Assembly: GCF_030684315.1 (NCBI RefSeq)
Contig: NC_081385.1
Location: 12,558,606 to 12,622,605, forward strand
Source of the DNA: Stegostoma tigrinum
Taxonomy: Eukaryota
Direction: 5' to 3'
DNA: 64,000 nucleotides
Both the position numbers and the translations under genes were made by a program. The notes under the pieces are model-generated. The model worked only from the letters and a program-made list of their open reading frames with translations. It did not search any database and was not told where the DNA came from. Position 1 is the stretch's first letter. Each line of letters begins with the position of its first letter. This document shows positions 2,690 through 50,865 of the stretch, in pieces.

Positions 2690-2901
2690 ATCATAGAATC
2701 CCTACAGTGTGGAAGCAAGCCATTCAGCCCATCAAGTCCACAAGTGAGCCTTTAAACAGGCTCCCAACCCGACCCACCCCTGTAACCCTGCATTTCCCAT
2801 GGCTAACCCACCTAGTCTGCACATCCCTGGGTGCTATGGGGCAATTTAGCATAGACAATCCACCATAACCTGCACATCTTTGGACTGTGCCAGGAAACCA
2901 G
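2690..2901 (-). mobile_element. V-SINE 3' portion
   Basis: Homologous to the 3' half of the 8950-9285 copy. Confidence 0.75.
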
Positions 2902-3639
2902 ATTACTCTGTATTTGCCTGGATGAATGCACCTCCAACAACATGCAAGAAGCTTGACACCATCCGGGAAAAAGCAACCTGCTTCACTGGGACCACATCTA
3001 TCACATTCAATTTTCACTCCCTTCAACATCGATGCTCAGCGGCAGAAGTGTACACCATCCACCAGATGCACTGCGGCAACTCACCAAAGCTCCTTTGATA
3101 AAATCTTCCAAACTCCTCACCTCTACTGTCTGGAACAACATGGCCAGGGTGATAAATGAAACATGACTAACTCCCTCTTCAAGCCATACACCATCCTGAT
3201 ATGGAACTGTATTGTTGTTCCTTAACTGTAACTCTGTCAAAATCCTGGAACTCCCCTCCTAATAGGTCAGCGATTGGATCTACACCCCAGGGGCTGCAGC
3301 AGCTCAAGAAGGCAGCTCACTACCTCCTTGACAAGAAAGGCCATTTAGGGATGAACAATAAATACCGGCCTAGACAGACCACCTCAATCTCATGAATGAA
3401 TAAAAAGGTGCTAAGTAAATGTAAACTCTTGTTGCAACATGTCTTTTCTGCTTTTTGCAAGAGGATGGCCAAAAGTATTAAAGCAGAAAACGTTTAAAGT
3501 TTTCAAAAGAAATAGAGATGCTGTGAATTGGGAACAAAAACAAAGTTGCTGGAAAAGCTCAGCAGGTCTGGCAGCATCTGTGGAGGAGAAAACAGAACTA
3601 ACGTTTTGGGTCCAGTGACCCTTCCTCAGAACTGCAGAA

Positions 3640-4256
3640 AACCTATGCTTGGTTCACACTAAACAACTGCACCTCCCAGTCACGAACCATTTCCACTCCC
3701 CCTCCCATTCTTTAGATGACATGTCCATCATGGGCCTCCTGCAGTGCCACAATGATGCCACCTGAAGGTTGCAGGAACAGCACCTCATATTCCGCTTGGG
3801 AACCCTGCAGCCCAATGGTATCAATGTGGATTTCACAAGCCTCAAAATCTCCCCTCCCCCTCCACATTCCAAAACCAGCGCAGCTCGTCCCCACCTCCCT
3901 AACCTGTCCTTCCTCCCACCTATCCCCTCCTCCCACCTCAAGCCCCACCTTCATCTCCTACCTACTAACCTCATCCTGACCCCTTGACCTGTCCGTCCTC
4001 CCTGGACTGCCCTATCTCCCCACTTACACTCGCCTTTACTGGCTCCATCCCTGCCTTTTTGACCTACGTGCTCCTCTATCCATCTTCTATCCGCCTCCCC
4101 CTCTCTCCCTGTCTATTTCAGAACCTCATTTCTGAAGGAGGGTCTTGGCCCGAAACATCAGCTTCCTGCTCCTCTGATGCTGCTTGGCTTGCTGTGTTCA
4201 TCCAGCTCTACACCTTGTTATCTCAGTTTGTCCAGCATCTGCAGTTCCTATCATCT
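3640..4256 (+). mobile_element. 5'-truncated Penelope-like element: GIY-YIG endonuclease C-terminus, pyrimidine-rich 3' UTR, terminal repeat with decayed hammerhead motif
   Basis: HLPVTNHFHSPSHSLDDMSIMGLLQCHNDAT*RLQEQHLIFRLGTLQPNGINVDF (TGA at 3763), followed by ctgaagg-agggtcttggccc-gaaacatc at 4132-4159. Confidence 0.8.
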
Positions 4257-5321
4257 CCGAAACATTTAGTCATGTAGCTTTTCATATTATAGACAAGTGC
4301 ATCTTGCTTTAGTCTCAAAGACACCATCTTGAGAAGAGAGAGCAACACAGCAGAAATAACAAAAGTTCCATCGTATAAATTAATCCTTTTCAGAATCACA
4401 TTGCTATTCATCCATCCAGCATATCCCATCATCCTGTTAGTGTTTCTTTTGGAGTTGTGCCATTTTACCAAGAAAATCACACATTTATACTTAGTATATG
4501 TAAAGCTGTATACATTCCTTCTTGCCTGGAGAGTTGGCTCAAGTTGTAATGCAGTTTCAATACCAGAATAAAACTCACATCTCTGGTCATTCTTCGTGTT
4601 ATGAAGCGAAAGAGTAAGTGCCAGAGAACTATCTGACCACAGAAGGCATCGCAGGCACCATTCTGCTCTCATGTGAGTGTCACAGACAAAAACATTTGCA
4701 TATTGCTTTTTCCAACCATCAGCTGTTTCAAACTGCTTTACAAACAGAAGGCTTCTTTGAAGTATAGTACTGCAATGAAACACGACAGACAATTTGTCCA
4801 CAACAAGATCTTTGAGTCATACAGCACAGAAACAGATCCTTCCGTCCAACTAGTCCGTGCTGACTAGACATCCCAATCTGCTCAGTAACAGCAGTGTGGA
4901 CTGTCAACAAGGTGCAAGGCAGAAATTCACCAAACATCCTCAGACAGCACCTTCCCAACTCATGACCACTTCCATCTAGAAGGACAAGGGCAGCAGATAT
5001 TTGGGAACACCACCACCTTCAAGCTCCCCTCCAAGATGGTCAGCATCCTGAATTGGAAGTATATCGCCATTCCTTCGCTGTTGCTGGGTGAAAATCCCGG
5101 AATTCCCTCCTTAATAGCACTGTAGGTCAACCCACAGCAAGGAGACTGCTGCAGTTCAAGAAGGCAGCTCATCACCACCTTCTCAATGGCAACTAACAAT
5201 GGGCAAGAAATGCTGGCCAGCCAGCGACACCCACATCCCACAAATAAATAGAAAAGAAATTGCCAGCAATCAGCCCATGCCCCTTTAAAACCTCCCCAAA
5301 AAGTAGAGTGATAACCAGGCA

Positions 5322-5439
5322 TAATGCAAACTACAGATGCTGGAGAATCCAAGATAACAAAGTGTGAAGCTGGATGAACACAGCAGGCCAAGCAGCATCT
5401 CAGGAGCACAAAAGCTGACGTTTCGGGCCGAGACCCTTC
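5322..5439 (-). mobile_element. Solo PLE terminal-repeat insertion, 11-bp TSD
   Basis: Same family as the 49474 element. TSD ataaccaggca at 5311-5321 and 5440-5450. Confidence 0.8.
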
Positions 5440-7517
5440 ATAACCAGGCAATCTGTTTTTAAGCTTTTCATTTGAGGGATGAATGTTTGGGCAGGACATC
5501 GAGTCTGTCTTGCCTGCTCTTCATCAAAACAGCAATGAGGGTATTTTTTAAATATCCACCTAAGCAGGTGAATGGATCCTCAGGTTAACATTCAGAAGAC
5601 AGCACTGCAGTCAGTTCAGTGCTTCTTCAATACTACAATGGACTGTCAGCATGAATTTCTGTGCTGAAAACCTGGAGTGGGATTTGCATGAGGAAATTTG
5701 TGATTCAAAGCTAAGTGACCCACCCATTGAGCAACAGCTAACACATTGCATAGGTTCTAGCAAATGCGATCAGGAGTTGCATCCCTGCTTTTTTTTTTAA
5801 ACCCCCTCTCACAAGAGCAAACATAGGTTCCCAGCAGTGATCTGCTCAGTCAGCATAGAACCCCTGGTTTATGGAAAGAATTTGGCCCTTGGCTCAAGAG
5901 AGCCACCTTGTGATAAAATGGCACACTGCAGCACAAATTAAAACTAAATTCCCACCAGAAAAGGTTCATAAACCTGGTGATTAAAATCAGTTCATACACA
6001 TTCCACTATGCTGTAACACAACCACTCCCAGTACATTAGTCCATCAATTATGGTATTCTTAACACACGCTTAACAGAAAAATTGAAACCTAACAAAGAAT
6101 ACTAGAGAAACTCTGGCAGCATCTGTGGGGAGAGAAACAGAGCTAAACAGTTAGTGATCACTAATCCTTAGAACCATAGTGGATTCAAAAAGTTTACTTG
6201 GTCTCGGTCTCTCTCCATAGTTGCTGCCAGCATTGCGGAGTTTCTCCACCATTCTGTGTTTATTTCAGATTTCCAGCATCCATAGTCTTTTGCCTTCAGC
6301 GCTTCACATGCCTCATGTTCTACTTGCTATCTCAACGTAGCAATATTAACAACTGGTTCGTGAGGTCAATATTGGTGTTTCATAAAAGGAGGGGTAGCAA
6401 ATATACGAGCAATTATACTGAACTTACTAAAAATGATCTCCACCACCCAGGTCAGTCTACAGAGGCAAATTTAAACGTACTGTACAATTCATCAACAAAA
6501 GTATCAGCATTTGGGTTTATCACCAACATCAATTTGGTTTCGCGGAGAATTCTTCTCAAATTACTATTGCCCCATTAGCACAGTATCACTAGCAGACTGC
6601 AGAGGTGAAAGGAAGATGATCCCAACTTACTGCACCATCCAGGCCAAGTAAATTAGATTAAAAACTAAACACAATCCATTGTTATTCAAGGTTAGCCAGT
6701 TCAAATTACTGGATAATAATGGAAAACAAAGAACGATGTATTGGGAATATGCAGTCAAAACAAAACAGATAGATGTGACCCCTGGGTCTTTAATCTCCTC
6801 CCTCTCTAACCCTTCCCTGACCCTTGAGTTTTGTTCCAATCACTCCTGCCCATTTTCTTAACACACATCACTTTTCCACCTCTCTCCAATTCTGAACAGG
6901 ATTTATGTCAGATGTGAAAAGTCAACCATCTTTCTCTTTCCACAGATGCTGAGTTGCTTCAGCACTTGGTTTGCATTTTAAAACAGAGATTTAATCAAAA
7001 TAGTTTGCGTTATTTATTTAAATTATTTGTATTAAATTGCATATTTTTGCAGAAAATTAGAAACCCAGACAGACGATTCCCAACTCATTCAATTTGTTCT
7101 CACTAGATTAATTTAATCTGCATATAGAATTGGCTTCACTTCATTTTTGTTCTGCTTCGAATTTTATTTTAAAATGATAGTTTAATGCATTTTAGGACAT
7201 AATAACAGAAGCGGCCGCAACTAACCATAAATCAAACATTTCTGATAGATCTTGGTCTCCTGCTTGTTTTGATCTTTATTTGAAATGGTAACACAAATAA
7301 AGGGTCAAAATCGTTAGGATGCACTCATTTAAGCTCCTTAAAGAACACAATGTCTAAACTGAGCTATCACCGCTTTTATAGATCAATGCCAAACTGGCTG
7401 TGACTCTCATAAGACGTATATCTCAACATGCACACATTGCTATTTGCAATATTTGATCTTATTCTGTAAAGAAACCTTTCACAAACACACACCAAATATA
7501 CACAGGCAAAAGCTTAC

Positions 7518-11453: not shown

Positions 11454-14400
11454 CTGGACAAGACGACACTTCACGTTAAATGCAAGTAAGTTGGCAAGGT
11501 CAAACATCAACCACTAAACTAACATCAATGTAGTATTCAGAGTAATGTAATTAAGGACAATTCTATAAACCCCGTAAAATGAAACAAAGAACTGAAGATG
11601 CTGGAAATCTGAATGAAAAACAGAAGTTGCTGGAGAAACTCAGCAGGGTCAACATTTCGAATCCTGTGACACTTCTTCAGAACTGTTCAAAATGTTAACT
11701 GTTTTCCCTCTACAGATGCTGCCAGAACTGCTGAGTTTCTCCAGCAACTTGTTTCAGCACCCTTTAAGTTTCCAATGTTGTTTACATCCTCAATGTTTGG
11801 ATGCCCTTAATTAGCTGTCACCTCACTAATATTACAGTTTGTATAACAAAAACAAAGAACATATGCATGGGAAAGGGAGTTTGTTGGTCAATCTTAAAGG
11901 GCATGGGAGTAATCTTCAAAGTTATTTATCTTCTAAAAGCATAGCGTGACTTACAAATGGATTGCAAAGTATTTTTAGTTGTTTTAATTAGTTAATAGGA
12001 AGGTACTTTTGCCACATTGGTACATTAACGGACTACTAATTAATGTAAGTAAGAAATGAACATGTTTAAAGGTGACAGATCTTGTATCATTGGAAGTAAG
12101 AACGATGTGCCCTTTCGGTTCGAAGAAGGGCCTAGGCCTGAAGTGTCAGCTTCCCTGCTCCTCTGATGTTGCTTGGCCTGCTGTGTTCATCCAGCCATAC
12201 ACCTTGTTATCTCAGATTCTCCAGCATCAGCACTTCCTACTATCTCCAGGATAAGATACTTCAATTAAGTTTTTTCAATCACTCCTCCATTCCTAATTGT
12301 CCCAGAGAATTGAACTGTTAAAGTCATTGGGAGAGAGGGACACTCCCTGGCCAGTTACAAAGGGAGCTATGGGATTTAGAATAGTGATAGTGAAGAGACA
12401 GCACTGCAGTCTCAAGTCAGGATAGTAAGAGACTCGGAGAGGAGCTGCTGTATTGACCATTGTTGTTTCCAATGGCAAATCTAATTTCATTCTTTCAGAT
12501 TTTGTAGTGGTTTTTATAAAACTGCACAGTTGTTTTAAGGTGCAGTTGACAGCCTGGAGTGTCATAAGATTTTCCTTCCCTGAGGGTATTCACAAACCAG
12601 ATGAGTTTTTAACAACAATCAACTTGGTTACAAAGTTAGACTAGCTTGTAATTCCATATTTTTTTTTTAAATTCAAATTTCACCACCTCCCATTCCGGGA
12701 TTTGAACCCCTGGGATTTCCAGATTATTAACAGTGATATTACCACTATGCCACTGCCTTCGTCCCGTGAACGGGCTAAAGAAGCTGAGATGCCTCTCCTT
12801 AGAGCAGAAAAGGTTAAAGAGGTTTAACAGCGGTTATGAGTTTTGAGGAAACAATAAGGAAAAACTGTTTCCATTGGCAGGAGGGTCAGTTACCAGACTC
12901 TCAAATTTAAGATAATTAACAAAAGAATCAGGGAGTTTCTTTTGCAGCAAGTTGTCATGATCTGGGATGTACTGCAGAAGAAATGCTGATAATGATCCAA
13001 TAATCATTTCAAAATGGAATTGGATGTTGGAAAGGAAACATCTGCAAAGGTCTGTTGAAAGAGCAGACACAGTACAACTGTTCTTCCAAAATGCTGACAA
13101 AAGTCTGCAAGAAAGCACCATTACAGAAACATATGAAATAGCAGCAGGAGTAGGACATCTGGCCCATCAAACCCGCTCTGCCATACAATAAGATCAGGGC
13201 TGATCTAATCATGGACTCAGCTCCACTTACCCGACCACTCACCAAAACCTTTAATTCCTCTCCTGCTCAAAAGTCTATCTATCTTTGCTCATTTTAGCTA
13301 GTTTCCTAGAGGATGCAAACACCAGATTCGAACATCATTCTGAGATACTATTAATGCTGGGGTCTGGGGTGGAGCCTGTTAAACTGCTGCTAAGGACATG
13401 GAGAGTGAACAATATAGTGTCAGCAAAAAGCAAGACTCCATCTGAAGGACATGAGTAAACCAGACACTCTCCCAATAACCTTGCAACTTTCAAGCTCATT
13501 TCTGTCCTGGTGATGTCCAGATTTATTTAATTCTCTCCCATGAACGATCACAATGGAATTTGAGAATGTAACTTGCAGGTTGTAAATACACCTATAAATA
13601 TGTACCAATCTGGATAAGTCAATTCTAATTTTGAGTGGCTGATGGGTTATAGAAATATAACTAGGGTGCCAATTCCGATCACAATGCAACATCACGAGCT
13701 GGAATCTGGTCTCCCTTGTCAAAGAGCCTGCCAGCAAGATCTGTTGAGGTTTATAGGTGATAAGTAATCATTCGGCCAGGCTGAGAGGTAGAGGTCACAT
13801 CACCAGACTGACAATCTGGAGTCCTAAGTATTCTAAGGAATGAGTTTGAAAACACCTCATTAGACAGTGAAATTTTAATTTTAGTGTTGAATTAAAAGCT
13901 AATTTAGTTCTAATTGTGACAATGTAAAGATTGCCATGAAAAGCTCACCTGGTTCACTCTAGTCCTTAAGGGAAGGAAATCTACCACGCTGGCCTACATT
14001 CAATTCTTAACTGCCCTCTGAAATTGTCTATCCAGGCCAAGGGCAGTAAAAGATGGGCAATAAATGCCTAGCCCAGCTTGTAATGTTTTACTTCCCATGA
14101 AAGTACTTTCAAAAATTCAATCTAACTATCAGCAAGAGGAGTACAGGTGCAGAGGGACATCAGATTCCCATGAATGATTCTCTGAAGGTGGCCAGGCATG
14201 CTAAAACACACTAAAACACACTTGTTAAGATGAGTAAAGGATCCTTGGGTTTATAAGCAGAGGCATAGTGTATGAAAGCAAGGAATTGATGCTACAACTC
14301 TACAAATCTGGGCACTTTATTTAAGGAAGGATTTTAAAACCCTGGAGAGAGTTTGAAGATTTACTAGAATGACACCAGGAAAAAGAAATTTCAAACATAA

Positions 14401-20790: not shown

Positions 20791-20932
20791 ATAACAAAGT
20801 GTGGAGCTGGATGAACACAGCAGGCCAAGCAGCATCTCAGGAGCTCCTGAGATGCTGCTTGGCCTGCTGTGTTCATCCAGCTACACACTTTGTTATCTTG
20901 GATTCTCCAGCATTTGCAGTTCCCATTATCTC
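20791..20932. mobile_element. PLE-derived element forming a loopless ~106-bp palindrome
   Basis: Arms 20791-20843 and 20844-20896, centred on gagctc, with one mismatch. Confidence 0.85.
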
Positions 20933-21038
20933 TAACCAACAACCATGCCACATTTGCCAACAGTGTTTTTTTGTACAGGACTCACCCCTGTTAGAATTGA
21001 AAATTAAGGCTGATAATTTGCGTGTAGCAAGGTCACTC

Positions 21039-21111: not shown

Positions 21112-21837
21112 AATGACAGTGACACTTTTGTTTGATCAATCCCTTCCCTGAGGGTCTGACTCAATCTGACAGCGTAATTCCACAAGGACCCTTGGTCCTC
21201 TAAGGGAGCAAAATGGGGTCAGATATCACATACACGTTCAATTCATCTGGACCCAATGCCAAGAGCTGATATGCTTCACTCTCATTGTTGGAGGATGCGG
21301 AGGCCAATTGTCAGGTCCTACCCCAAATAAAACAAGATGATGCAACACGAGGGGATAGGTGAGAGGAAGAACAGGTTAGGCAGGCGGGGATGAGCTGGGC
21401 TGGTTTTGGGATGCCATGGCGGGGGAGGGAAGCTCCTAAGATGTTGCTTGGCCTGCTGTGTTCATCCAGCCCCTCACTTTGTTATCTATGATGCAATACA
21501 GACTGAGGATTAAACATGGGATGCAGAAATTCCAAGTGTTCCACATTTGCAAGTTCTGGCTATTTCAACGAAGATAGGTCAGAACCATTTTTCTCCACCT
21601 TCACCATACCTACTATATTCTCCCTTTTCACAGCTAATCTGCCTTGAATTATTTGAAGTCTTGGCCCCATTCATCATTTTCAATTGTACCCATCACAACC
21701 TTTGCCAATGAGCAGCCCATTAACATACAGACCTAAATGTAAACAGACGCCAAGTGTAAAAGAAAGGGCAGCAGCTGCGTAAAATTATGCAATATGTGAC
21801 ACACAGAGAGGCCATTCAGCCTAACCAGCCCATGACA

Positions 21838-27998: not shown

Positions 27999-29229
27999 CT
28001 GCAACAACCAAAAGCTCCATTAGTACAACTTTACATAAGGTTTGCATTTCTCCAGTTCTCTAAGGAGGATGGACTTCCCAACTAAAGCAAGCAACTCATA
28101 GAGTCTCCTTTCACATCACCTTCCAAACAGACAACTGTCACACTAGTTGAAATGGTTCGTGACTGGGAAGTGCAGTTGTTTGTGGCAAACTGAGCGTAGG
28201 TGTTCCGCAAAGCAGTCCCCAAGCCTCTGCATGGTTTCCCTGATGTAGAGGAGCCCACATCTGGAACAGCAGATACAGTATAACACAGATATTTCAGAAT
28301 CCCCTCCTCCTCCCCCATTTCTAAAGAAGGGTCTCGGCCTGAAAATGTCAGCTTTCCTGCTCCTCTGATGCTGCTTGGCCTGCTGTGTTCATCCAGCTCT
28401 ACACCTTGTTATTTACAGTAGTCATACATCCTGATTTGGAAATATATCGCATTTCCTTCACCGTTGCTGGGTCAAAATCCTGGAACTCCATTCCTAACAG
28501 CAATGTGAATACCTGCACTCCACAGATTGCAGTAGTTTGAGAAGGCAGCTCACTACAGCCTCATCCAAGGCAATTTTGATTGGGTAATAAATGCTAGCTT
28601 AGCGCGCAATGCTCACACCCTCTTCAACAAATTTTATAAAGTCTCTTAAGGCCAGATCTGGGGCAATCATTACATTGTGGCCATTGAAGCTCTCAAAGCA
28701 GCTTCTAAAGCATAGTAGCCAAGAAGATGCTTGATGCGTGAATGCCCCGATTTTATCTTCCCATAAATTACCTTCTGGTTTCATGCGAAAGACATTTCTC
28801 TGGCATGAAATTAGAGACCTTTTGAAACAGTTGTCAGTTTAAGGTAAATTCTTAATATTTCTCCTGGTTGTACCCTCCTCCAATCCTGGTCACAGTCTTC
28901 GATGCCAACAGAATTGCACACCTTTTTGGGGATATCAAAATAATGTTTCTTAGAATTGGGACACAAATTGCCAAACAGAAGGGTTCAACCAAAACAAAAT
29001 ATTACCACCAGTAGTAAAGCAAAACACTGCAGATGCCAGATATCAAATGAAAACATTGGCAGTTGTTGGAAATACTCAGTAGGTCAAGCAGTATCTGTGG
29101 AGAGTGTCAACATTTCAGGTCAATGACCTTTCACCAGAATGAGAAAAGAGTAGGTAGTTTTATTAGTTCAATGGCAGAAAAACATTTTAAGTCAAAAAGT
29201 CTCATTTAACTACCACATAAAGTGGTATC

Positions 29230-30175: not shown

Positions 30176-30333
30176 AAGCAGCATCAGAGGAGCAGGAAGG
30201 CTGACATTTTAGGCCTAGACTAGGCCTGAAACGTCAGCCTTCCTGCTCCTCTGATGCTGCTTGGCCTGCTGTGTTCATCCATCTCTACACCTTGTTATCT
30301 CAAGATTCTCCAGCATCTGCAGTTCCTACTATC
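30176..30333. mobile_element. Fold-back PLE-derived short element
   Basis: Inverted arms aagcagcatcagaggagcaggaaggctgac / gtcagccttcctgctcctctgatgctgctt. Confidence 0.75.
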
Positions 30334-31240
30334 TTTGAGTTTATCCTGTTTGATTTCTGATTCTGGGACATTTGTCTATAAGAAACGTTCAAAGCTCTAC
30401 AGCATTATTAGAATCCAGCAAGAACTCTGGGAAAGGGATTTTAAAAAAACTTACCTGAAGATGCTCTTTGCACAGATTTTAAGAAAGACAGACACAATAG
30501 AGAAGAACCATCCATCTCCTTAGTGCAGTGGAGAGAAAGAACCATCTGAAGTACAATTACAGCAGTCTTCATCTGTTAAGTATAACTTTCTTCGCTCAAT
30601 AAGTTGTCCAAATACCATTGTATTAAGAGTCTCCTCATTCTAAATGTATTACCTAGTCTTAAAACTTCTTACAATTAGGACACTGGCTACATATCAAAAG
30701 TACTTCATTGGTTCTGAACCATTTCGGGAAATCCTAATGTGGTATATGCATCTCAAATTCTCTCTCTCCCTGCCACTTTGAATGATCCAACAATCACAGT
30801 GCAGGCTCACAGAAATGCAATGTCCAATTAGATGAAATAGTAGAAAAGTATGAGGAACTCTATACCAGCAAGACTGTTGTCCTTAGAAAGAAAAGCACCA
30901 GGAATCAGGGAGGTTTCTGATCACAGTCATGCTTTTTGGAACAGACAGATAATCATCACAGGCTATTTGAACAACATCCAACAGAGAGTCATGAGAAGTA
31001 ACAATGGATTCAAGGTTAGTAATTATTCTTGGAAAAATACTTAAAAAAAGAGGCACTGAAGGTACAGTGTACCAAAGAGATAACAGAAGGTAAAAACTGG
31101 ACATTGAAATGAATTATTCTGAATTCTTCTAACACCTTTCTTTAAAGTCTGCACAATGCTTTTCTAAGGGTACCCTTATGTTACATTATATGAACATTTT
31201 AGAGAATATTTACTACGTCACAATAAAGTGTTGGTAAAAT

Positions 31241-38330: not shown

Positions 38331-38689
38331 AAAAGGTTTTCTGAAGAAGGGTCCCGACCCGAAACTTCGACTCTCCTGTTCCTCTGATGCTGCCTGACCT
38401 GCTGTGCTCCTCCACTTCCACACTGTCTCTGACTGCAGCATCTGCAGTTCTTACTATCTCCTGCTAAACACACTGCCTGTCTCACTATTCACCATCCCCC
38501 CCTCGATGTAACTTTCAATCACTTTATTTGACTTTCGTCTCTCGATACATTAGTCCCAGCTACATTTCTTTTTAATACTTCCACGCTTCATGTTTCTTTT
38601 CAATCCTTTCATTCGTTTGATTTCAAGCTGGCTTTCTTGTTAATTTAACCGCAGGGTCTGGTTGGGGATCAGGGGAGGATCTGAATGGA

Positions 38690-40379: not shown

Positions 40380-41950
40380 CAGAGGGAGACAGAAAGCAGG
40401 AAACTATAGACCAGTTAACTTAATATCTGTCATTGGGAAATTATTAGAATCCATTAAGTAAGATCAGGACTTTTTGAAAGACCAAATAGAATCCATCAGA
40501 GTCAGCATGGCTTAATGAAGGGTAAATCATGTTTGACTACTTTGGTAGAGCTTATTGAAGATGTAACAAGCAAAGTGGATAATAGGGACCCTGTAGATGT
40601 GGTGTATCTAGAATCTTTTGATAAGGTGTTGCCCAAAATTTTATTGCACAAAGTGAGATCACATGGAATTGGTGTAATTTATTAGCTTGGATGGAAGATT
40701 GGCTGACCAACAGAAAGCAGAAAGTTGGGATAAATGGGACGTTCTCTGGTTGGCAACATATAACTGGAGAGGATTCAGCCCTTGGGCCTCAACTATTCAC
40801 AATCTATATTAATTACTTGGATGCTGGGATGGAAATACTACAAACAAATTTGCAAATGACCTTAAAATAGTTGAAAAAGTAAGATGCAATAAAGAAATAA
40901 GAAGTTCACAATTAGATATGGATAGGGTAGGTGAATGGGCCAAAATCTGGCACATGGAGATAATAAGGACTGCATATGCTGGAAGCCCGAGTCTATGGGT
41001 GTGAGACTGGAAAAGGATAGCAGGTCAGATAACATCCAAGGAGCAAGAAAGTCAATGTTTCAAGCCAAAACCCTTCATCAGGACAGTCCTGACGAAAGGT
41101 TCAACTGGAAATGTTCTCCTTGGATGCCATTGACCTGTTATGCTTTCCCTGCCTCACATTTTTAGCAGATGGTGTTTAACATGAATAGTTATGAGGTCAT
41201 CCATTTTGGTTGGATGAATTGAAAGACAACTTAATATCCAAATGGAGAAAAACCTCAGTGCGCTTTGGTGCAGAGAGATCTGAGTGTCCTTAGACATGAT
41301 TCACCGAAATCAAAGTTCAGCAAGGTACAATGGAAGGCAGCTAAAATTTGGCATTTATTATTCAAGGAATAGAGGGTAACGTAGGGAAGTGTTGCTGCAA
41401 CTGTACAAGGTGTTAACTGCACCTGGAGTTTTGCATACAGGCCCCTTTACTTGAGGAGGGATATAGAAGAATTAGTGCTATTTGAAGGAGGTTTATTAGA
41501 TTGATTCCAGTGGTGAGGGGTTTGTCTTATGAAGAGAACTTGAGCAGTTTAAGCCTATACTCTCTGGAGTCTATAAGAATGAGAGGATGTCTAATTGAGG
41601 GATAAATGATGTTAAAGGGAATTGACAAAGTAGATGTAGAGGCGATGTTTCCTCATGTGGGGCAATCTAGAATGAGAGGTTTTAGCTTTAGGATAAGGCG
41701 GTGGCAGATTTAAAACAGAGATGGGGAGAAATTACTTTTCTCAAAAGATTGTGAATCTGGCCACAAGGGTGGTGGATGCCAGGAGATTAAGTACATTTAA
41801 AGAGGAGACAAACATTTTTAGTTAGTAACATATTAAAGGGTTATGAGGAGCAGACAGGAAAGTGGAGAAATGAGATTAACCATGATTGTATTCAACAGCA
41901 GATTAGGCTTGAAGAGCAGAATTGCCTATTCCTGCCCCTCGATCATACGT
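40380..41950 (+). mobile_element. Older decayed CR1-like LINE, interrupted by a fold-back PLE-derived element (~40965-41165)
   Basis: Degenerate RT nucleotide motifs (aactatagaccagtt, agtcagcatggctt, aaatcatgtttgact). The nested element is centred on cccttcatcaggac-a-gtcctgacgaaagg. Confidence 0.75.
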
Positions 41951-42758: not shown

Positions 42759-42956
42759 ATGGCAGCCGATGACCAATTTTTCTCAGAGGAAGACACATGT
42801 CCAATTTACCGGGGTCCGTCGGATCGTTTCGGATCACATATCGAGTATAATCCTGACGGGGATAACCGCTATTCTCCTCAAACTCTCATTGGAAAATGGT
42901 TTGAAGAGAGGATTGGGATCAATGAAATTAGGAAACTGAAGCCTTTGAGATCACAG
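42759..42956 (+). CDS. CFAP68: CFAP68/C11orf1 (UPF0686, ciliary microtubule inner protein) first coding exon
   Basis: MAADDQ...NRYSPQTLIGKWFEERIGINEIRKLKPLRSQ resembles C11orf1 YSNRTLMGNWNQER...KPLPSQ. GTAAAC donor, 198 nt, phase 0. Syntenic position. N-terminal start is less certain. Confidence 0.8.
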
Positions 42957-44429
42957 GTAAACAATGTTTTTAACCTGGCTTCCTTCCTGGTTGGAGACAT
43001 GTTTTGTTTGCATTGGTTTGATAGTCATTGCTGACACAAACCACAGGTAAACAGGTGTGATGGGTTAAACTGACTTGACATTTAGTATTTGGGGATCTGT
43101 CTTGCACTGCGGACCGAGTGATCCCTCCATGTCTACTGCCAGTGATCTTATTGTGCATCATCTAGGTCTCTGCTTTACTTAAAGTTTGGCTGTTTTCTGG
43201 TTCTTGGAAGATCCAGCAGACCCCTTTACTTACACAGCGTAGTACATTAAGTTGATTTCTTCAATACAGCTCTCCAGGAGAAGTCATTCCATCCTCTGCT
43301 CAGTCCGAATAACCTGTGACTTATGTCACTGTTACATCTCCTAAAATTAACATATGCATTTTCATTATGCAACCTGTACTGAGGATTAATTATTCACTTA
43401 TTTTGAATTAAAAGAGAAATCCAAAAATGTACTGGGTAGGATGTGAAGTCTTTTTTAAAGTTCACAAGCCTTTAAATAAAGTTTTCTTTATGATTTTTTT
43501 TGGAGGGATACATCGTGGGCCTACACCATGTGAAGTTTAGAACAGTGAGAAGTAATTTAATAGAAATGAGCAAAATTCTGAAGTGGTTTCTTGCAGTAGA
43601 TACTGGCTTGGCTATCCAGAAAAGTGGGGAGGGTCATTGTCTAAGCATATGCGGCTGATCGTTTGGAATGAGAGAAGAAATTTCTTCACTCAAAGCATGA
43701 ATGTTTTAGTCCAGAGGGTTTTGACGGCTGTAGGGTATATTTAAGGCTGAGATTTAACCTCTCGGGGATCCAAGGGTTAAACACAGTGGGCATGAGAAAG
43801 GAACTGAGGCAGAAGATCAGCTCTGATCATTCTGAGTGTCAGAACAGGCTCAAAAGGCCTTGCTTCTACTTGTTAGATTCTCATGTTCTTATTTTTCTGT
43901 GTTTCAGTGATAGCAGAGTCAGAGAACTGTATTTAAGCCTCACAAGTCTCAGCTACCACTCTATCTCAGTTCTTATTCGGTCCAGAAGAGCAAGCCTCTT
44001 GGTTTCTTGACTGATATTTATCCATTTTGATAATAAGGTTAAACATAGTGATAGATTCAAGCAGAGACTTACCAGGGTGTAGCAGAAAGAGAAAGGGCAA
44101 CCAGCTTTGGCTCATAGATAAACTGGTATCTTGGAATAGTTCAGATGTTGCAGTGGTAGTAATGTTGAAGCTGTCAGTGTTTAGTGCCATTTCTCCACTG
44201 AAACTGACAGCAAATTTGAGAGACTGAAAATGCACTGGATAAAGTGGAAATCTAGAAGTCACTCTTTATGATTCTGTGACAACCCAAAGGGTGTGCTCTT
44301 GAGATTGTCCCTGACTCTGCAGAAATGCGATCGATGGGAAATCTATGAACTGACGCTACATTCCACGTTTGCTTAAAACCAAGTTACACCTTGTTGAATA
44401 AAATGTAGCTGGGTTAATAGATAATTACT

Positions 44430-45620: not shown

Positions 45621-45890
45621 CCTTTTCTCTCTATTCACCCCCATCCTCATATTTTTGATGTCAGCATTGCCCCTAACAGGCTTTGCTTGTAAATATATAA
45701 TGGGCTGTACTGTGTTTTCCAGGTGGTGGAAAAAATATTATAAGATCTATTCACAATGGTGTATTTTCTTCTGTCTCACTATGTATAAAACTACAGGTGA
45801 TTTGGAAAAATGAATTTAAAAAGTCAATTTTATATTAAGAGAATGGCACATTTCAATTATGATTTAAAAAAAGACATTTTTAGATTTAGT

Positions 45891-46101
45891 GATAATGGGA
45901 ACTGCAGATGCTGGAGAATCCAAGATAATAAAATGTGAGGCTGGATGAACGCAGCAGGCCCAGCAGCATCTCAGGAGCACAAAAGCTGATGTTTCGGGCC
46001 TAGACCCTTCATCAGAGAGGGTCTCGGCCCGAAACGTCAGCTTTTGTGCTCCTGAGATGCTGCTGGGCCTGTTGTGTTCATCCAGCCTCACATTTTATTA
46101 T
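45891..46101. mobile_element. Fold-back PLE-derived short element, 16-bp TSD
   Basis: TSD catttttagatttagt at 45875-45890 and 46102-46117. Minus-strand core CTGATGAAGGGTCTAGGCCCGAAACATC at 45988-46015. Confidence 0.85.
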
Positions 46102-46707
46102 CATTTTTAGATTTAGTTTTGTTTACCTTTATTCCAGCTTTTACCTTGATCCAATCATAATCATTTACTTTTCTATCTGAAAATATCTTAATTCAAAATG
46201 AAGGATAAAATATTTTAACTTCCTACTTTGTTGTCTTTGGGAATACTTCAATGTGATTGGCTATGTGCCCAGTTGCTTTTACTGCTGCTGGTTGCCTGGA
46301 GATTCCCTGGGGATGAAGTGTCGGTGGAAAAAACAAGTCCATACCACAGAGATTGCGAGATCTTTGTGGGCATTTGTCTTTGGGTCAAGGATAACATGAC
46401 AGCTTTGCAATTGGCCAGAAAATCCAGGCCTATGTTAAAAATGTAGGGACAATGATTTTTAACTAAAGCAGGAGACCTAATTTCAACTCAATTGTTGAAG
46501 ATCATCCTAGTACTCTCAAGTAGAAATTGTTCAGCTCATATCACTTAATAAGCTTTTGACACTAAATTCTCATTTTGTTGTGTTATTTCTGAGTGCATAA
46601 TTTAATGGAGTTTCTTTTGATTGCAGAAAAAGTGCTGCTTTCACAGAGGTGGACAATATTAGGTAAAAGCAGAAATTATTAACCTATTTAGTTCCCTTTA
46701 CTTGCAG

Positions 46708-46771
46708 TATGAATATGTCTATCGCACAATATATGGGGATTCCTATAACAAGGAAGAGAAGCGACATGAGT
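46708..46771 (+). CDS. CFAP68: CFAP68/C11orf1 second coding exon
   Basis: cttgcag acceptor, GTAAGT donor, 64 nt. YEYVYRTIYGDSYNKEEKRHE (cf. human HYFETTYDTSYN). Confidence 0.85.
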
Positions 46772-47250: not shown

Positions 47251-48580
47251 TAGGTTCAGGATGTGCCGGGACAAGATTTGAAAACAAGTGTGTGTCAATG
47301 AAGTTGACAGAGTGGGTTAAAAGAAATTAGTGGCACTTAGGATGGTTGTACCTAGATTCCCTCATGCATTGGATATACATCACTAAACACTCTGTTTAAG
47401 TCATCAAAATAATCACTAAAATATAAAATGCTTCAGTGGTATGTTCAAATGTGCTCATTTGCCTGTTAATCATTCCAACTGTGATATCACTTGGCTATGT
47501 GGCTTTCTGAGTCAGGCCTTCTTACATGTCAGAAAATATGGTAATAACAGTAACATCATCTACTGCCAAATTGTGCCTTATATACTCTATTAGCATATTG
47601 ATATTAGCTGTACAAATGTCTTTGTGATGGAAGGAAATTGATCAGGTGAGTTGAGACAATATATGGAAGTAGATGGAAAGATTTAGTGGTGAAGACCTGA
47701 TGTAGCAGAAACCATACCATACACACAAATTGAACTATTTTATGCAAAACAATAATAAACACACAAGGCTGCATTAGGTACCAAATAATAACCTATGCTC
47801 ATTTTTAAAAGAGGGAATTAATCCAGAGTTTAGAGCCATGATTAGAATGTTCAGCACTCAGTGCCTTAAATAATGATAAAATTCTTAATTGGAGCTCTTT
47901 AATCTATACCCTATAACCATTTATTCAGCTGGGGAGGTACTGAACTCAAGTCTATGGAGAGGTACAGCTTATGCAACTGAAATAAATAACAGTAAAGTAA
48001 TTACAACCTTTTAAAGGCATATGTGAAGTACTATAAGTTGTACACATCTGTATATGTGTGGTTGAAATTGCTATGGTGTATTTTACTAAAAAAAGATGAT
48101 ACATACAAATCAAGAGCAGGAGTAGGGCATCCAGCCCATAGAGCCTGCTCCACCATTGAACAAAATCAATGCTGATCTGATTGCAATCTCAAATCCACAC
48201 TCCTGCCTCCTGCAATAACTCTCAAACCCTTGCATAGAAGAATCAACCGACTTCAACCTTAAAACTATTCAAGGGCTCTGCTTCCACCACCTTTTTAGGA
48301 AACAAGTTCCCAAGACTCAGAACCCTGTCAGAGAAAAATAGTCTCTGTTTTAAATGGGTGACCCAAAAGCAGTGACCCACAATTCTAGATATTCCTGTAA
48401 GTGGAGTCAGCCTCTCCATACGTACTGTGTCAAATTCCCAGGGTTTTATATATTTAAATCAGACAGCTTCTTATCCTTTCAAATTTCAGAGGATACAAAC
48501 CTAGTCTGTTCAACGTTTCCTCATAAGACAACCTGTCCATTCTAGGTATTAGTCTGGTAAATCTTTTCTAAACTGCCTTC

Positions 48581-48817: not shown

Positions 48818-49570
48818 CTTTCAATATACTTACATCCTTACTTAAATAGGGTGTCCATTACTATGTACAGTACTCCAGACAGACTCATCAATGCCATGTA
48901 TAAGGGAAGCATATTGATATTAACTGTACAAATGTCTTTGTGATGGAAGGATATTGATAAGGTGAGTTGAGACAAGTTTTTGTGTCCAGTTCACCTTGTG
49001 ATAATTGCTAATATTTTATTAGCTTTCCTATTTACTCGTGCTTACGTACTAAAATTTTGCTGGGACTAAGTTTGTGCAGTTAGGTAAGAAAGTTTTCTTT
49101 TTACTTTGTAAAATCTAATTTAATTTGTATTTTGCACTTGGCATTGAACTGAATCTACAGTTTAAATTCTGTCAATGCAATCCTTAATAAATCGGTTTTT
49201 CTAAGGATTTCAGTGAAAGAGCAGTTTAATTAACAACCAGCTGAAACTGGATTCTCTTTAAGTGAGTTAGATGCCCTATTGAATTAGGATCATAAAAAAT
49301 TAAATAACTGAGTGTGACCCAACACTTGAATGCCATTGAGAATAGAGTTAAGAATTTCCAGGATTTAAGCTGAGAACGTGAAACAGGTGGTTTATTGCTT
49401 TTAACTGAACATTTTCAGCTTCCAGGAATTGATTATTGCAGTGCTGCAGAAGAAGAGTCTGGTGAGTATCTGGGATAATGGGAACTGCGGATGCTGGAGA
49501 ATCCAAGATAATAAAGTGTGAAGCTGGATGAACACAGCAGGCCAAGCAGCATCTCAGGGGCACAAAAGCT

Positions 49571-49598
49571 GACGTTTCGGGCCTAGACCCTTCATCAG
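49571..49598 (-). ncRNA. Minimal hammerhead ribozyme core (PLE type)
   Basis: On minus: CTGATGA-A-GGGT(CTAG)GCCC-GAAAC-GTC. Confidence 0.6.
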
Positions 49599-49606
49599 AG
49601 AGGGGT

Positions 49607-49634
49607 CTGATGAAGGGTCCAGGCCCGAAACGTC
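49607..49634 (+). ncRNA. Minimal hammerhead ribozyme core (PLE type)
   Basis: CTGATGA-A-GGGT(CCAG)GCCC-GAAAC-GTC. Helix I is very weak, so activity is unproven. Confidence 0.6.
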
Positions 49635-50422
49635 AGATTTGTGTTCCTGAGATGCTGCTTGGCCTGCTGTGTTCATCCAGCTTCACACTTTATTATCTTG
49701 GTGAGTATCTGGTAAGTGATTATATTCCTGAGGTTCCATATAGTAGAGCAGCTGGTGTTAAGCTTCACAAAATATGATGTGAATACAATGATTAATTAGT
49801 TCCCTAAAACACATTAAGAATGGCAGGTCAGGTGATATATCCCAGGTGCAGTGTGTGGAAGTTCCTGAATACCAGTTTGATTCATGTTTATAGCATGTGT
49901 TTGAAGGTCAAAAAGTTCTGATTCAGACGTTTTGAACAAGGTGCTGAACTACACACTATGGCACTTCAGGGATGGGGAAATTTACCTGCATTCTTTTCAC
50001 CAGGAGACAGCCACTGTTCTTATGGTTGGATTGTCTGATCTGGTCAGTGTTTAGGCACAGGAGGATATGACTATGAGTGAAGGAGATAAGGGGACCCAGA
50101 GGATAGGAAGGCAGATGCCTCAGCCTTTGTAATTGTCCATCGATCAGACGTTCTTTCAGCTTGTCTGGATGAAATTGAGGATGGCTAGGGGGAAGGAGCT
50201 AACCGACCACAGCACCATGTTATTAATAACAGTATAATAGAATAATTACAACACTTAAACAGTGTGTAACAAGGTATTGTAAGCTTTATATCCATTTGTA
50301 CATATGTAGTTGCAAGTGATTATGATATACATTGCTGTACACTGCTGAAAAAAATGATGAAATCCAGTTTAATGCAAAGGAATATTAAACATCACTGTCT
50401 TTGAAATGATTCTTTCCTTCAG

Positions 50423-50865
50423 TTTTTGAAACAGAGCCACATATTTATCCTACACACCAGCCAGAATTGGACCCTCCTCATACCAAACTAATCCCGAAAA
50501 CCTGTTACATGCTAGACTACGTGGATCCCGCACTCTTAATGTACCCTCCCTGCCCCCCTGATTTGAACAGGGTGGAGAACGAGCAGTTACAATATTGTGG
50601 ACCCCCTGCTCCACCAGACGCTGATGAGACAGCAGAGAACAATCAATTATGTGGTACTTACATCTCTTTAAATCCCAGTTGTCCGACAGATTCGGATGCT
50701 CTGCAAAACCAGCAGCCAGAAGTGCCAGGGTTTTGTGGATATCACCTCCCTACAAAAATGCCATTAGGATTGTGCACAGCCAGATTTTGTGAGCCATGCA
50801 AGCCTACACCATTATCTTCTTCAGGATCAGGTTTGGCAGTGTGTTGCTCATCCTCCAATCCCTGA
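50423..50865 (+). CDS. CFAP68: CFAP68/C11orf1 last coding exon with long C-terminal extension
   Basis: ttccttcag acceptor. FETEPHIYPTHQPELDPPHTKLIPKTCYMLDY contains the conserved HQPELDPP, then stays open to TGA at 50865. AATAAA at 50967-50972. Confidence 0.88.

Follow-up and report, generated by a model that had tools for sequence, protein, structure and literature searches.

A fold-back insertion at the CFAP68 locus of Stegostoma tigrinum is very probably a stub of an autonomous Penelope-like retrotransposon

The insertion and its host intron

The window, a stretch of 64,000 nucleotides from Stegostoma tigrinum contig NC_081385.1, carries CFAP68 on the plus strand, as originally predicted: matches to Pfam PF06608 (CFAP68) at 42861-42974 and 50419-50523 lie on either side of the insertion site. 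The exon downstream of the host intron starts at 50423 (50423-50523, plus strand; PF06608 positions 113-147), while the upstream exon is presumably the 64-nt segment 46708-46771 on the plus strand, the sole one of three candidates with a fitting phase. Given this putative exon, the element would sit in a CFAP68 intron of 3.65 kb. That the insertion had hit the donor of a coding exon was considered and dropped, 46708-46771 being the better exon. The same intron contains a 68-bp direct repeat (47592-47659 and 48908-48975; 96% identical, 1,316 bp apart), each copy of which has a donor-like GTGAGT near its end.

The insertion spans 49474-49698 (225 bp) and is flanked by an exact direct repeat of 14 bp (49460-49473 and 49699-49712). 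In the contig of a related organism, which is approximately 94% identical over the intron, position 49459 is joined directly to 49699 with a single copy of the 14-mer. Because this site is empty in the relative, the 14-mer is a true target site duplication (TSD), as had been claimed. The TSD doubled a donor-like GTGAGT (49462 and 49701; 49712 was also noted), and the plus arm holds an acceptor-like site; this site and the duplicated donor-like site delimit a candidate cryptic exon of 20 nt (49681-49700), which lies within the hairpin.

The two inverted arms described previously (49503-49599 and 49606-49701) align over 97 columns with four mismatches and one gap. They are not a chance pairing, given the empty site and the 185 matches that arms of this family have in 984 kb. 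Element positions were numbered from hammerhead C3, which was set to 0. In this numbering the minus-strand arm (49506-49605) corresponds to -7 to +92 of the terminal repeat of a Penelope-like element (PLE) and the plus-strand arm (49606-49698) to -1 to +92, the latter being unlike the minus arm at 5 of 94 positions. The insertion is lopsided, which had escaped the original prediction: a PLE tail of 32 bp (49474-49505, minus strand, +93 to +124) belongs to the minus arm alone. Both arms meet head to head at the junction 49605|49606, at an 8-bp centre (49599-49606) to which the minus arm gives seven parental bases and the plus arm one. Each arm carries a minimal type I hammerhead core, at 49571-49598 on the minus strand (nominal cut after 49571) and at 49607-49634 on the plus strand (nominal cut after 49634). 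The position of the cores and their spacing of 8 nt are as first written, and so is the length of helix I, stated as 1-2 bp: the minus core retains the parental 2 bp, whereas the plus core is down to 1 bp.

The parent element and the census of fold-backs

To characterize the family, the genome (3.2 Gb, 835 contigs) was searched with the arm, which returned many near-full matches. Since query-driven hits would be a selected set, we also drew a sample of 10-kb stretches, placed at round-number coordinates on large contigs (92 obtained of 100 requested; 920 kb). Upstream of the arm, longer copies extend through a pyrimidine-rich 3' region to an ORF with reverse transcriptase (RT) and GIY-YIG matches. 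In all four long natural ORFs, a Pfam RVT_1 match (E 3e-7 to 4e-5) is followed by a GIY-YIG match (E 0.002-0.005); these matches are weak, the RVT_1 cut-off being passed by one of the four ORFs and the GIY-YIG cut-off by none. The ORF shows DKG and YIDD motifs, and the fully translated ORF of locus L097 contains a C-X4-C-X2-C linker before the endonuclease. A CX2-5CxxC linker between RT and endonuclease marks the Neptune and Nematis clades of PLEs (excerpts of PMC8557442), and the parent's linker, as read from the translation, would be the mark of Neptune/Nematis rather than of Penelope/Poseidon. Among 20 long loci, L084 and L085 are partial tandems with a unit of approximately 3.57 kb and an arm at both ends. 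Their tail continues into the 5' region of the ORF, with the main ORF apparently beginning downstream of the tail. For this reason a circular or tandem monomer, in which the tail end loops back to the arm start, was dropped. Because longer copies and tandems reach an ORF with RT and GIY-YIG domains, both arms at the CFAP68 locus are terminal repeats of an autonomous PLE, whose tail corresponds to 49474-49505; the terminal repeat of the parent carries the hammerhead motif. In both tandems the arm contains an ATG in the reading frame of the main ORF, but this frame is closed by a TGA where the tail ends (L085 ~2899-3020, L084 ~2744-2865). The next ATG follows 13 codons past this TGA, making the segment a candidate upstream ORF or read-through region.

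The family accounts for 8.2% of the sampled DNA, and one RT-proximal fragment gave 69,516 first-look candidates in the genome. Many ORF stretches of 700-990 codons were also seen in the sampled DNA. Given these long stretches and the coverage of about 8%, the family may be recently or still active.

The sample contained 171 arms, among them 42 adjacent head-to-head pairs, a lower bound since pairs with broken alignments were counted among 95 unpaired arms. Extrapolation of the 42 gives ~146,000 fold-backs genome-wide. The sampled fold-backs range from 141 bp to 3.9 kb and share the same layout with arms of ~55 bp to more than 2 kb; their outer ends vary. In 41 of 42 the tail is present on exactly one arm. 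Both cores are intact in 5/42, and in 2 of the 31 short ones. The original prediction had taken the element for a replicating non-coding unit, as opposed to independent insertions with unique junctions. This view could not be upheld: junction coordinates are distinct in 42/42 sampled fold-backs, and among 6,189 cases of back-to-back cores within 14 nt genome-wide, the exact junction of the CFAP68 copy is shared by 16 (exact count). The 30 best hits of the genome search were kept out of the junction counts, as they had been chosen by the query.

The 16 same-junction copies also speak for a fold-back unit of retrozyme type, non-autonomous but passing as a whole through transcription, self-cleavage and re-insertion, for the tail lies on one side in 13 of them, on the other side in two and is absent from one. 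The overall layout recurs in 30/30 top search hits, which were query-selected, and both cores are intact in the CFAP68 copy. Yet the 16 copies differ in their outer ends and comprise several subfamily types, and neither the distinct junctions nor the rarity of double cores among short fold-backs fits a unit propagated as such. Moreover, retrozymes are tandem repeats (excerpts of PMC7229834), but the layout here is not head-to-tail: there is one core per strand, and only one short same-strand pair among 185 arms and no same-strand array were found in 984 kb. None of 75 young arms starts at the cleavage site, +28, i.e. no ribozyme-cleavage footprint was detectable in this set, and the ribozymes are predicted to be buried (see below). 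A retrozyme-like unit is therefore very unlikely, and we are highly confident that the element is a stub of a PLE; the 13:2 bias in tail polarity leaves a little room for limited re-mobilisation. The further claim that PLE machinery made the insertion was right. Metazoan non-LTR retrozymes, as described in parts of PMC7229834 and bioRxiv 10.64898/2026.07.22.740005, are likewise non-coding and kin to PLE terminal repeats with a type I hammerhead; they are arranged head-to-tail with canonical hammerheads and form circular RNA, in contrast to the head-to-head arms with one minimal core per strand seen here.

The layout itself, an inverted truncated copy with a one-sided tail, is already published in the accessible parts of PMC8557442 and PMC3846280. 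Insertions of endonuclease-positive PLEs (Pen2a_Av in PMC3846280; scheme in PMC8557442) likewise have head-to-head terminal repeats with a TSD around the whole unit, and an inverted 5'-truncated copy with a tail of 30-40 bp at one end, compared to 32 bp here; their parents also encode RT with a C-terminal GIY-YIG domain and form partial tandems with pseudo-LTRs. Unlike in the rotifer examples described there, no ORF is left here and both arms measure ~100 bp, the TSD is 14 bp rather than 8-10 bp, and copy number is far higher. Fold-back PLE stubs of cartilaginous fishes were the subject of none of the papers listed by our literature search; Repbase and Dfam, where the family may be catalogued, lay outside this search, and the supplements of PMC4209133 and bioRxiv 10.64898/2026.07.22.740005 may list motifs from cartilaginous fishes.

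Further members were seen in the window. Fold-back stubs of the same PLE family or of older subfamilies occur at four other places, 45888-46102, 20791-20933, 30179-30338 and 40957-41103, with a different junction in each; of these, 30179-30260 draws false Rfam microRNA matches (MIR5229, mir-761). Single-arm stubs of the same PLE are present at 5321-5441 (with a 13-bp TSD), 4131-4267, 12122-12246, 21432-21487, 28290-28412 and 38340-38460.

The hammerhead cores

The motif fits the minimal PLE-type hammerhead that had been claimed, and its core is conserved across subfamilies. It shares with the minimal hammerheads of metazoan PLEs the extra base between 9 and 10.1, the pair G10.1-C11.1 and the palindromic 15.2-16.2, and the helix I of D. 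virilis Penelope also has 2 bp; helix II is shorter here (4-5 bp) than in Schistosoma hammerheads (7-8 bp). Pairs of opposite-strand hammerhead motifs 100-700 bp apart have already been noted for PLEs, a distance much larger than the 8 nt between the cores here (all from excerpts of PMC4209133). Compared with Rfam at E values of up to 1, the window matched no hammerhead family; two microRNA hits on the stub at 30179-30260 were all that came up.

Conservation beyond that of neighbouring bases was detectable in 52 older arms, in which non-CpG core positions are kept at 0.967 compared to 0.884 downstream (nominal p 0.003, the copies being related), with variation at position 7 (0.63 in this set) and in the loop. 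Core and downstream conservation did not differ in 66 young arms (p 0.24). The -2/+29 pair is present as C-G, U-G or U-A in 50/50 young and 21/24 old arms, and the 10.4/11.4 pair is kept as U-G or U-A. A third helix I pair was found in 0/50 young arms, the parental helix I having 2 bp. As core and helix I pairing are kept in the arms, selection has likely acted in the master lineage; that is, the core likely matters in the parent element and not in the CFAP68 copy.

Folding predictions argue against activity of the copy. The full fold-back RNAs are predicted to form hairpins of -207.8 and -190.6 kcal/mol, and forcing the hammerhead fold would cost +49 and +55 kcal/mol, compared to 8-10 kcal/mol in the parent context. 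On both strands the antisense arm is transcribed ahead of the core, and helix II receives a predicted probability of 0.0, for the full RNA as well as at four nascent lengths. The antisense arm would thus capture the ribozyme on either strand, and the switch between hairpin and ribozyme that had been envisaged is not supported. The same applies to the dimeric form, for which a single sense core per strand offers no partner in cis. Ribozyme activity at the CFAP68 locus is unlikely according to these models. Single minimal hammerhead motifs gave no cleavage in vitro (excerpts of PMC4209133), and the ribozyme of an anole PLE required protein and was dispensable for insertion (excerpts of PMC11167929). 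In this element, Poseidon of Anolis carolinensis (PAc), the hammerhead likewise lies in the pLTR just before the tail, the RT starts bound the tail and inserted copies are without a cleavage footprint, but the parent studied here differs by its C-X4-C-X2-C linker and by a main ORF apparently located after the tail (same excerpts).

These results also bear on whether the host has adopted the element as an RNA switch or ribozyme controlling CFAP68 pre-mRNA. Its location in a CFAP68 intron, the duplication of a donor-like GTGAGT and the origin of siRNAs from inverted Penelope repeats in Drosophila (excerpts of PMC3681739) are compatible with such a role. But besides the predicted absence of helix II even in nascent RNA, the orthologous site is empty in a relative that is so similar over the intron, the arms depart from the family majority at 3 and 6 positions, including the lost helix I pair on the plus strand, and with the extrapolated number of fold-backs in the genome, an intronic one is expected. 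Adoption by the host is thus most improbable.

Assembly of the fold-back and the 5' end of the PLE RNA

Our interpretation is that the CFAP68 fold-back very probably is a short insertion of an autonomous PLE, consisting of two terminal repeats head to head, which was likely assembled once on site; by prediction it can neither fold its hammerheads nor transpose any further. In the proposed pathway the PLE protein would nick both target strands, 14 bp apart, and each nick would prime reverse transcription within the PLE RNA, one at ~+92 and one at ~+125, the tail end. Both cDNAs would run off at or near the capped RNA 5' end, ~4 nt before the hammerhead core, which would explain that both arms stop there and that the cores are back to back. 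The two cDNA 3' ends would be joined via microhomology or end-joining repair, and the copy would then decay. Transcribed as part of the CFAP68 pre-mRNA, it would fold into a stable hairpin of ~95 bp and be removed by splicing. Arm 3' ends are concentrated in two places, at +89 to +93 and at +124 to +134. These match the two internal RT start sites of the anole PLE, for which cutting and extension on both strands have been described in vitro (excerpts of PMC11167929).

The same dead stub could also arise through self-priming, i.e. the cDNA folds back and is copied, and trimming of one end by the endonuclease leaves a one-sided tail (Arkhipova et al. 2013), a route argued for in the accessible part of PMC3846280. 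Junctions favour short palindromes, which speaks for self-priming: one palindromic junction that removes both cores is present in 257 copies genome-wide, and others occur too. Subfamily variants are common to the arms of one insertion at 0.93, compared to 0.60 in shuffles (n=20), implying that both arms derive from one RNA or one source locus. This concordance at diagnostic sites fits snap-back as well as two primers and does not separate the models. However, under self-priming the side of the tail should be tied to arm length in a constant manner. Among 41 sampled fold-backs the tail arm is longer in 9, within 20 nt in 25 and shorter in 7; of these 7, one is questionable (L098) and four others are old, with ill-defined ends. 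In seven long two-arm loci with a one-sided tail, the tail arm is shorter in 4 and longer in 3, and in L079, L081, L083 and L096 it is shorter by 0.5-2.4 kb. In addition, the arms of L159 are of two subfamily types, and it is common for both arms to end at one and the same position, the inferred RNA end. Tail polarity therefore favours two separately primed cDNAs; on balance we lean towards two primers rather than snap-back and regard self-priming as rather unlikely. At some junctions short templated fillers copied from the arms were observed (L079 9188-9416, L115 4201-4442, L059 5402-5633), which would resemble polymerase-theta end joining.

The proposal places an RNA 5' end immediately upstream of the core. 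Of 75 young arms, 23 start at -7 to +3, none at -224 to -28 and 27 further upstream, although alignment breaks may blur the long-arm class. At many junctions with back-to-back cores both arms start at -4 or -5. The base preceding -4 is G in 2,070 cases and A in 631, with point mutants of long copies making up 3/30 and 11/30 of the inspected -4 loci. When a T was fixed before this base, the TG:TA ratio was 772:108, compared to a background ratio of 1.46. Controls gave 53:47 at position 0 (first 100 of 195, hand count), where the ratio is diluted by point mutants of one subfamily, and 16:23 at +19 (39/39). One copy starts at -4 and extends ~245 nt into the 5' end of the ORF. The bases around -4 fit initiator consensus motifs, as we presume.

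Such an excess of G would be expected from copying of a capped mRNA end, and for L1 and SVA an untemplated G is known to betray the cap (PMC3287187). Against this, in the two solo copies whose TSD is clear, the G belongs to the target and thus counts as microhomology rather than as an addition. The pLTR of Penelope contains an internal promoter (excerpts of PMC2377424). Hence the stubs likely represent run-off copies of the 5' end of the PLE mRNA, and from the DNA sequence this RNA probably starts at -4. The arms of the CFAP68 copy itself end close to -4 without matching it exactly (-7 and -1), and extension of its minus arm to -7, 3 nt beyond the inferred start, counts against the -4 model. 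An intron ending at -27 of the terminal repeat was also considered and rejected, as three whole arms starting there are without a common upstream exon.

The complete sequence of events, in which a capped mRNA starts 4 nt before the core, both nicked strands prime near its 5' end, the cDNAs run off with a C copied from the cap and their ends are joined, is put forward tentatively, its chances being somewhat short of even. If true, the transcription start of a PLE would have been mapped from DNA alone, the hammerhead would be the first structure of the PLE mRNA, explaining its 2-bp helix I, and self-priming would be replaced as the source of PLE inverted repeats. The TG/TA count for a cap-derived G before -4 is the new contribution; our search of main texts found no paper on cap-derived G at PLE 5' ends.

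Taken together, the insertion at the CFAP68 locus is real, but as a PLE stub it is ordinary and its layout is known. For annotation it carries a warning, in that fold-back stubs of PLEs mimic MITEs, microRNA hairpins and double ribozymes. The origin of inverted, tailed PLE insertions is still called undefined in the accessible part of PMC8557442, and the estimated ~146,000 fold-back events of this family would provide coordinates for the RNA start (-4), the priming sites (+92 and ~+125) and the joining step.
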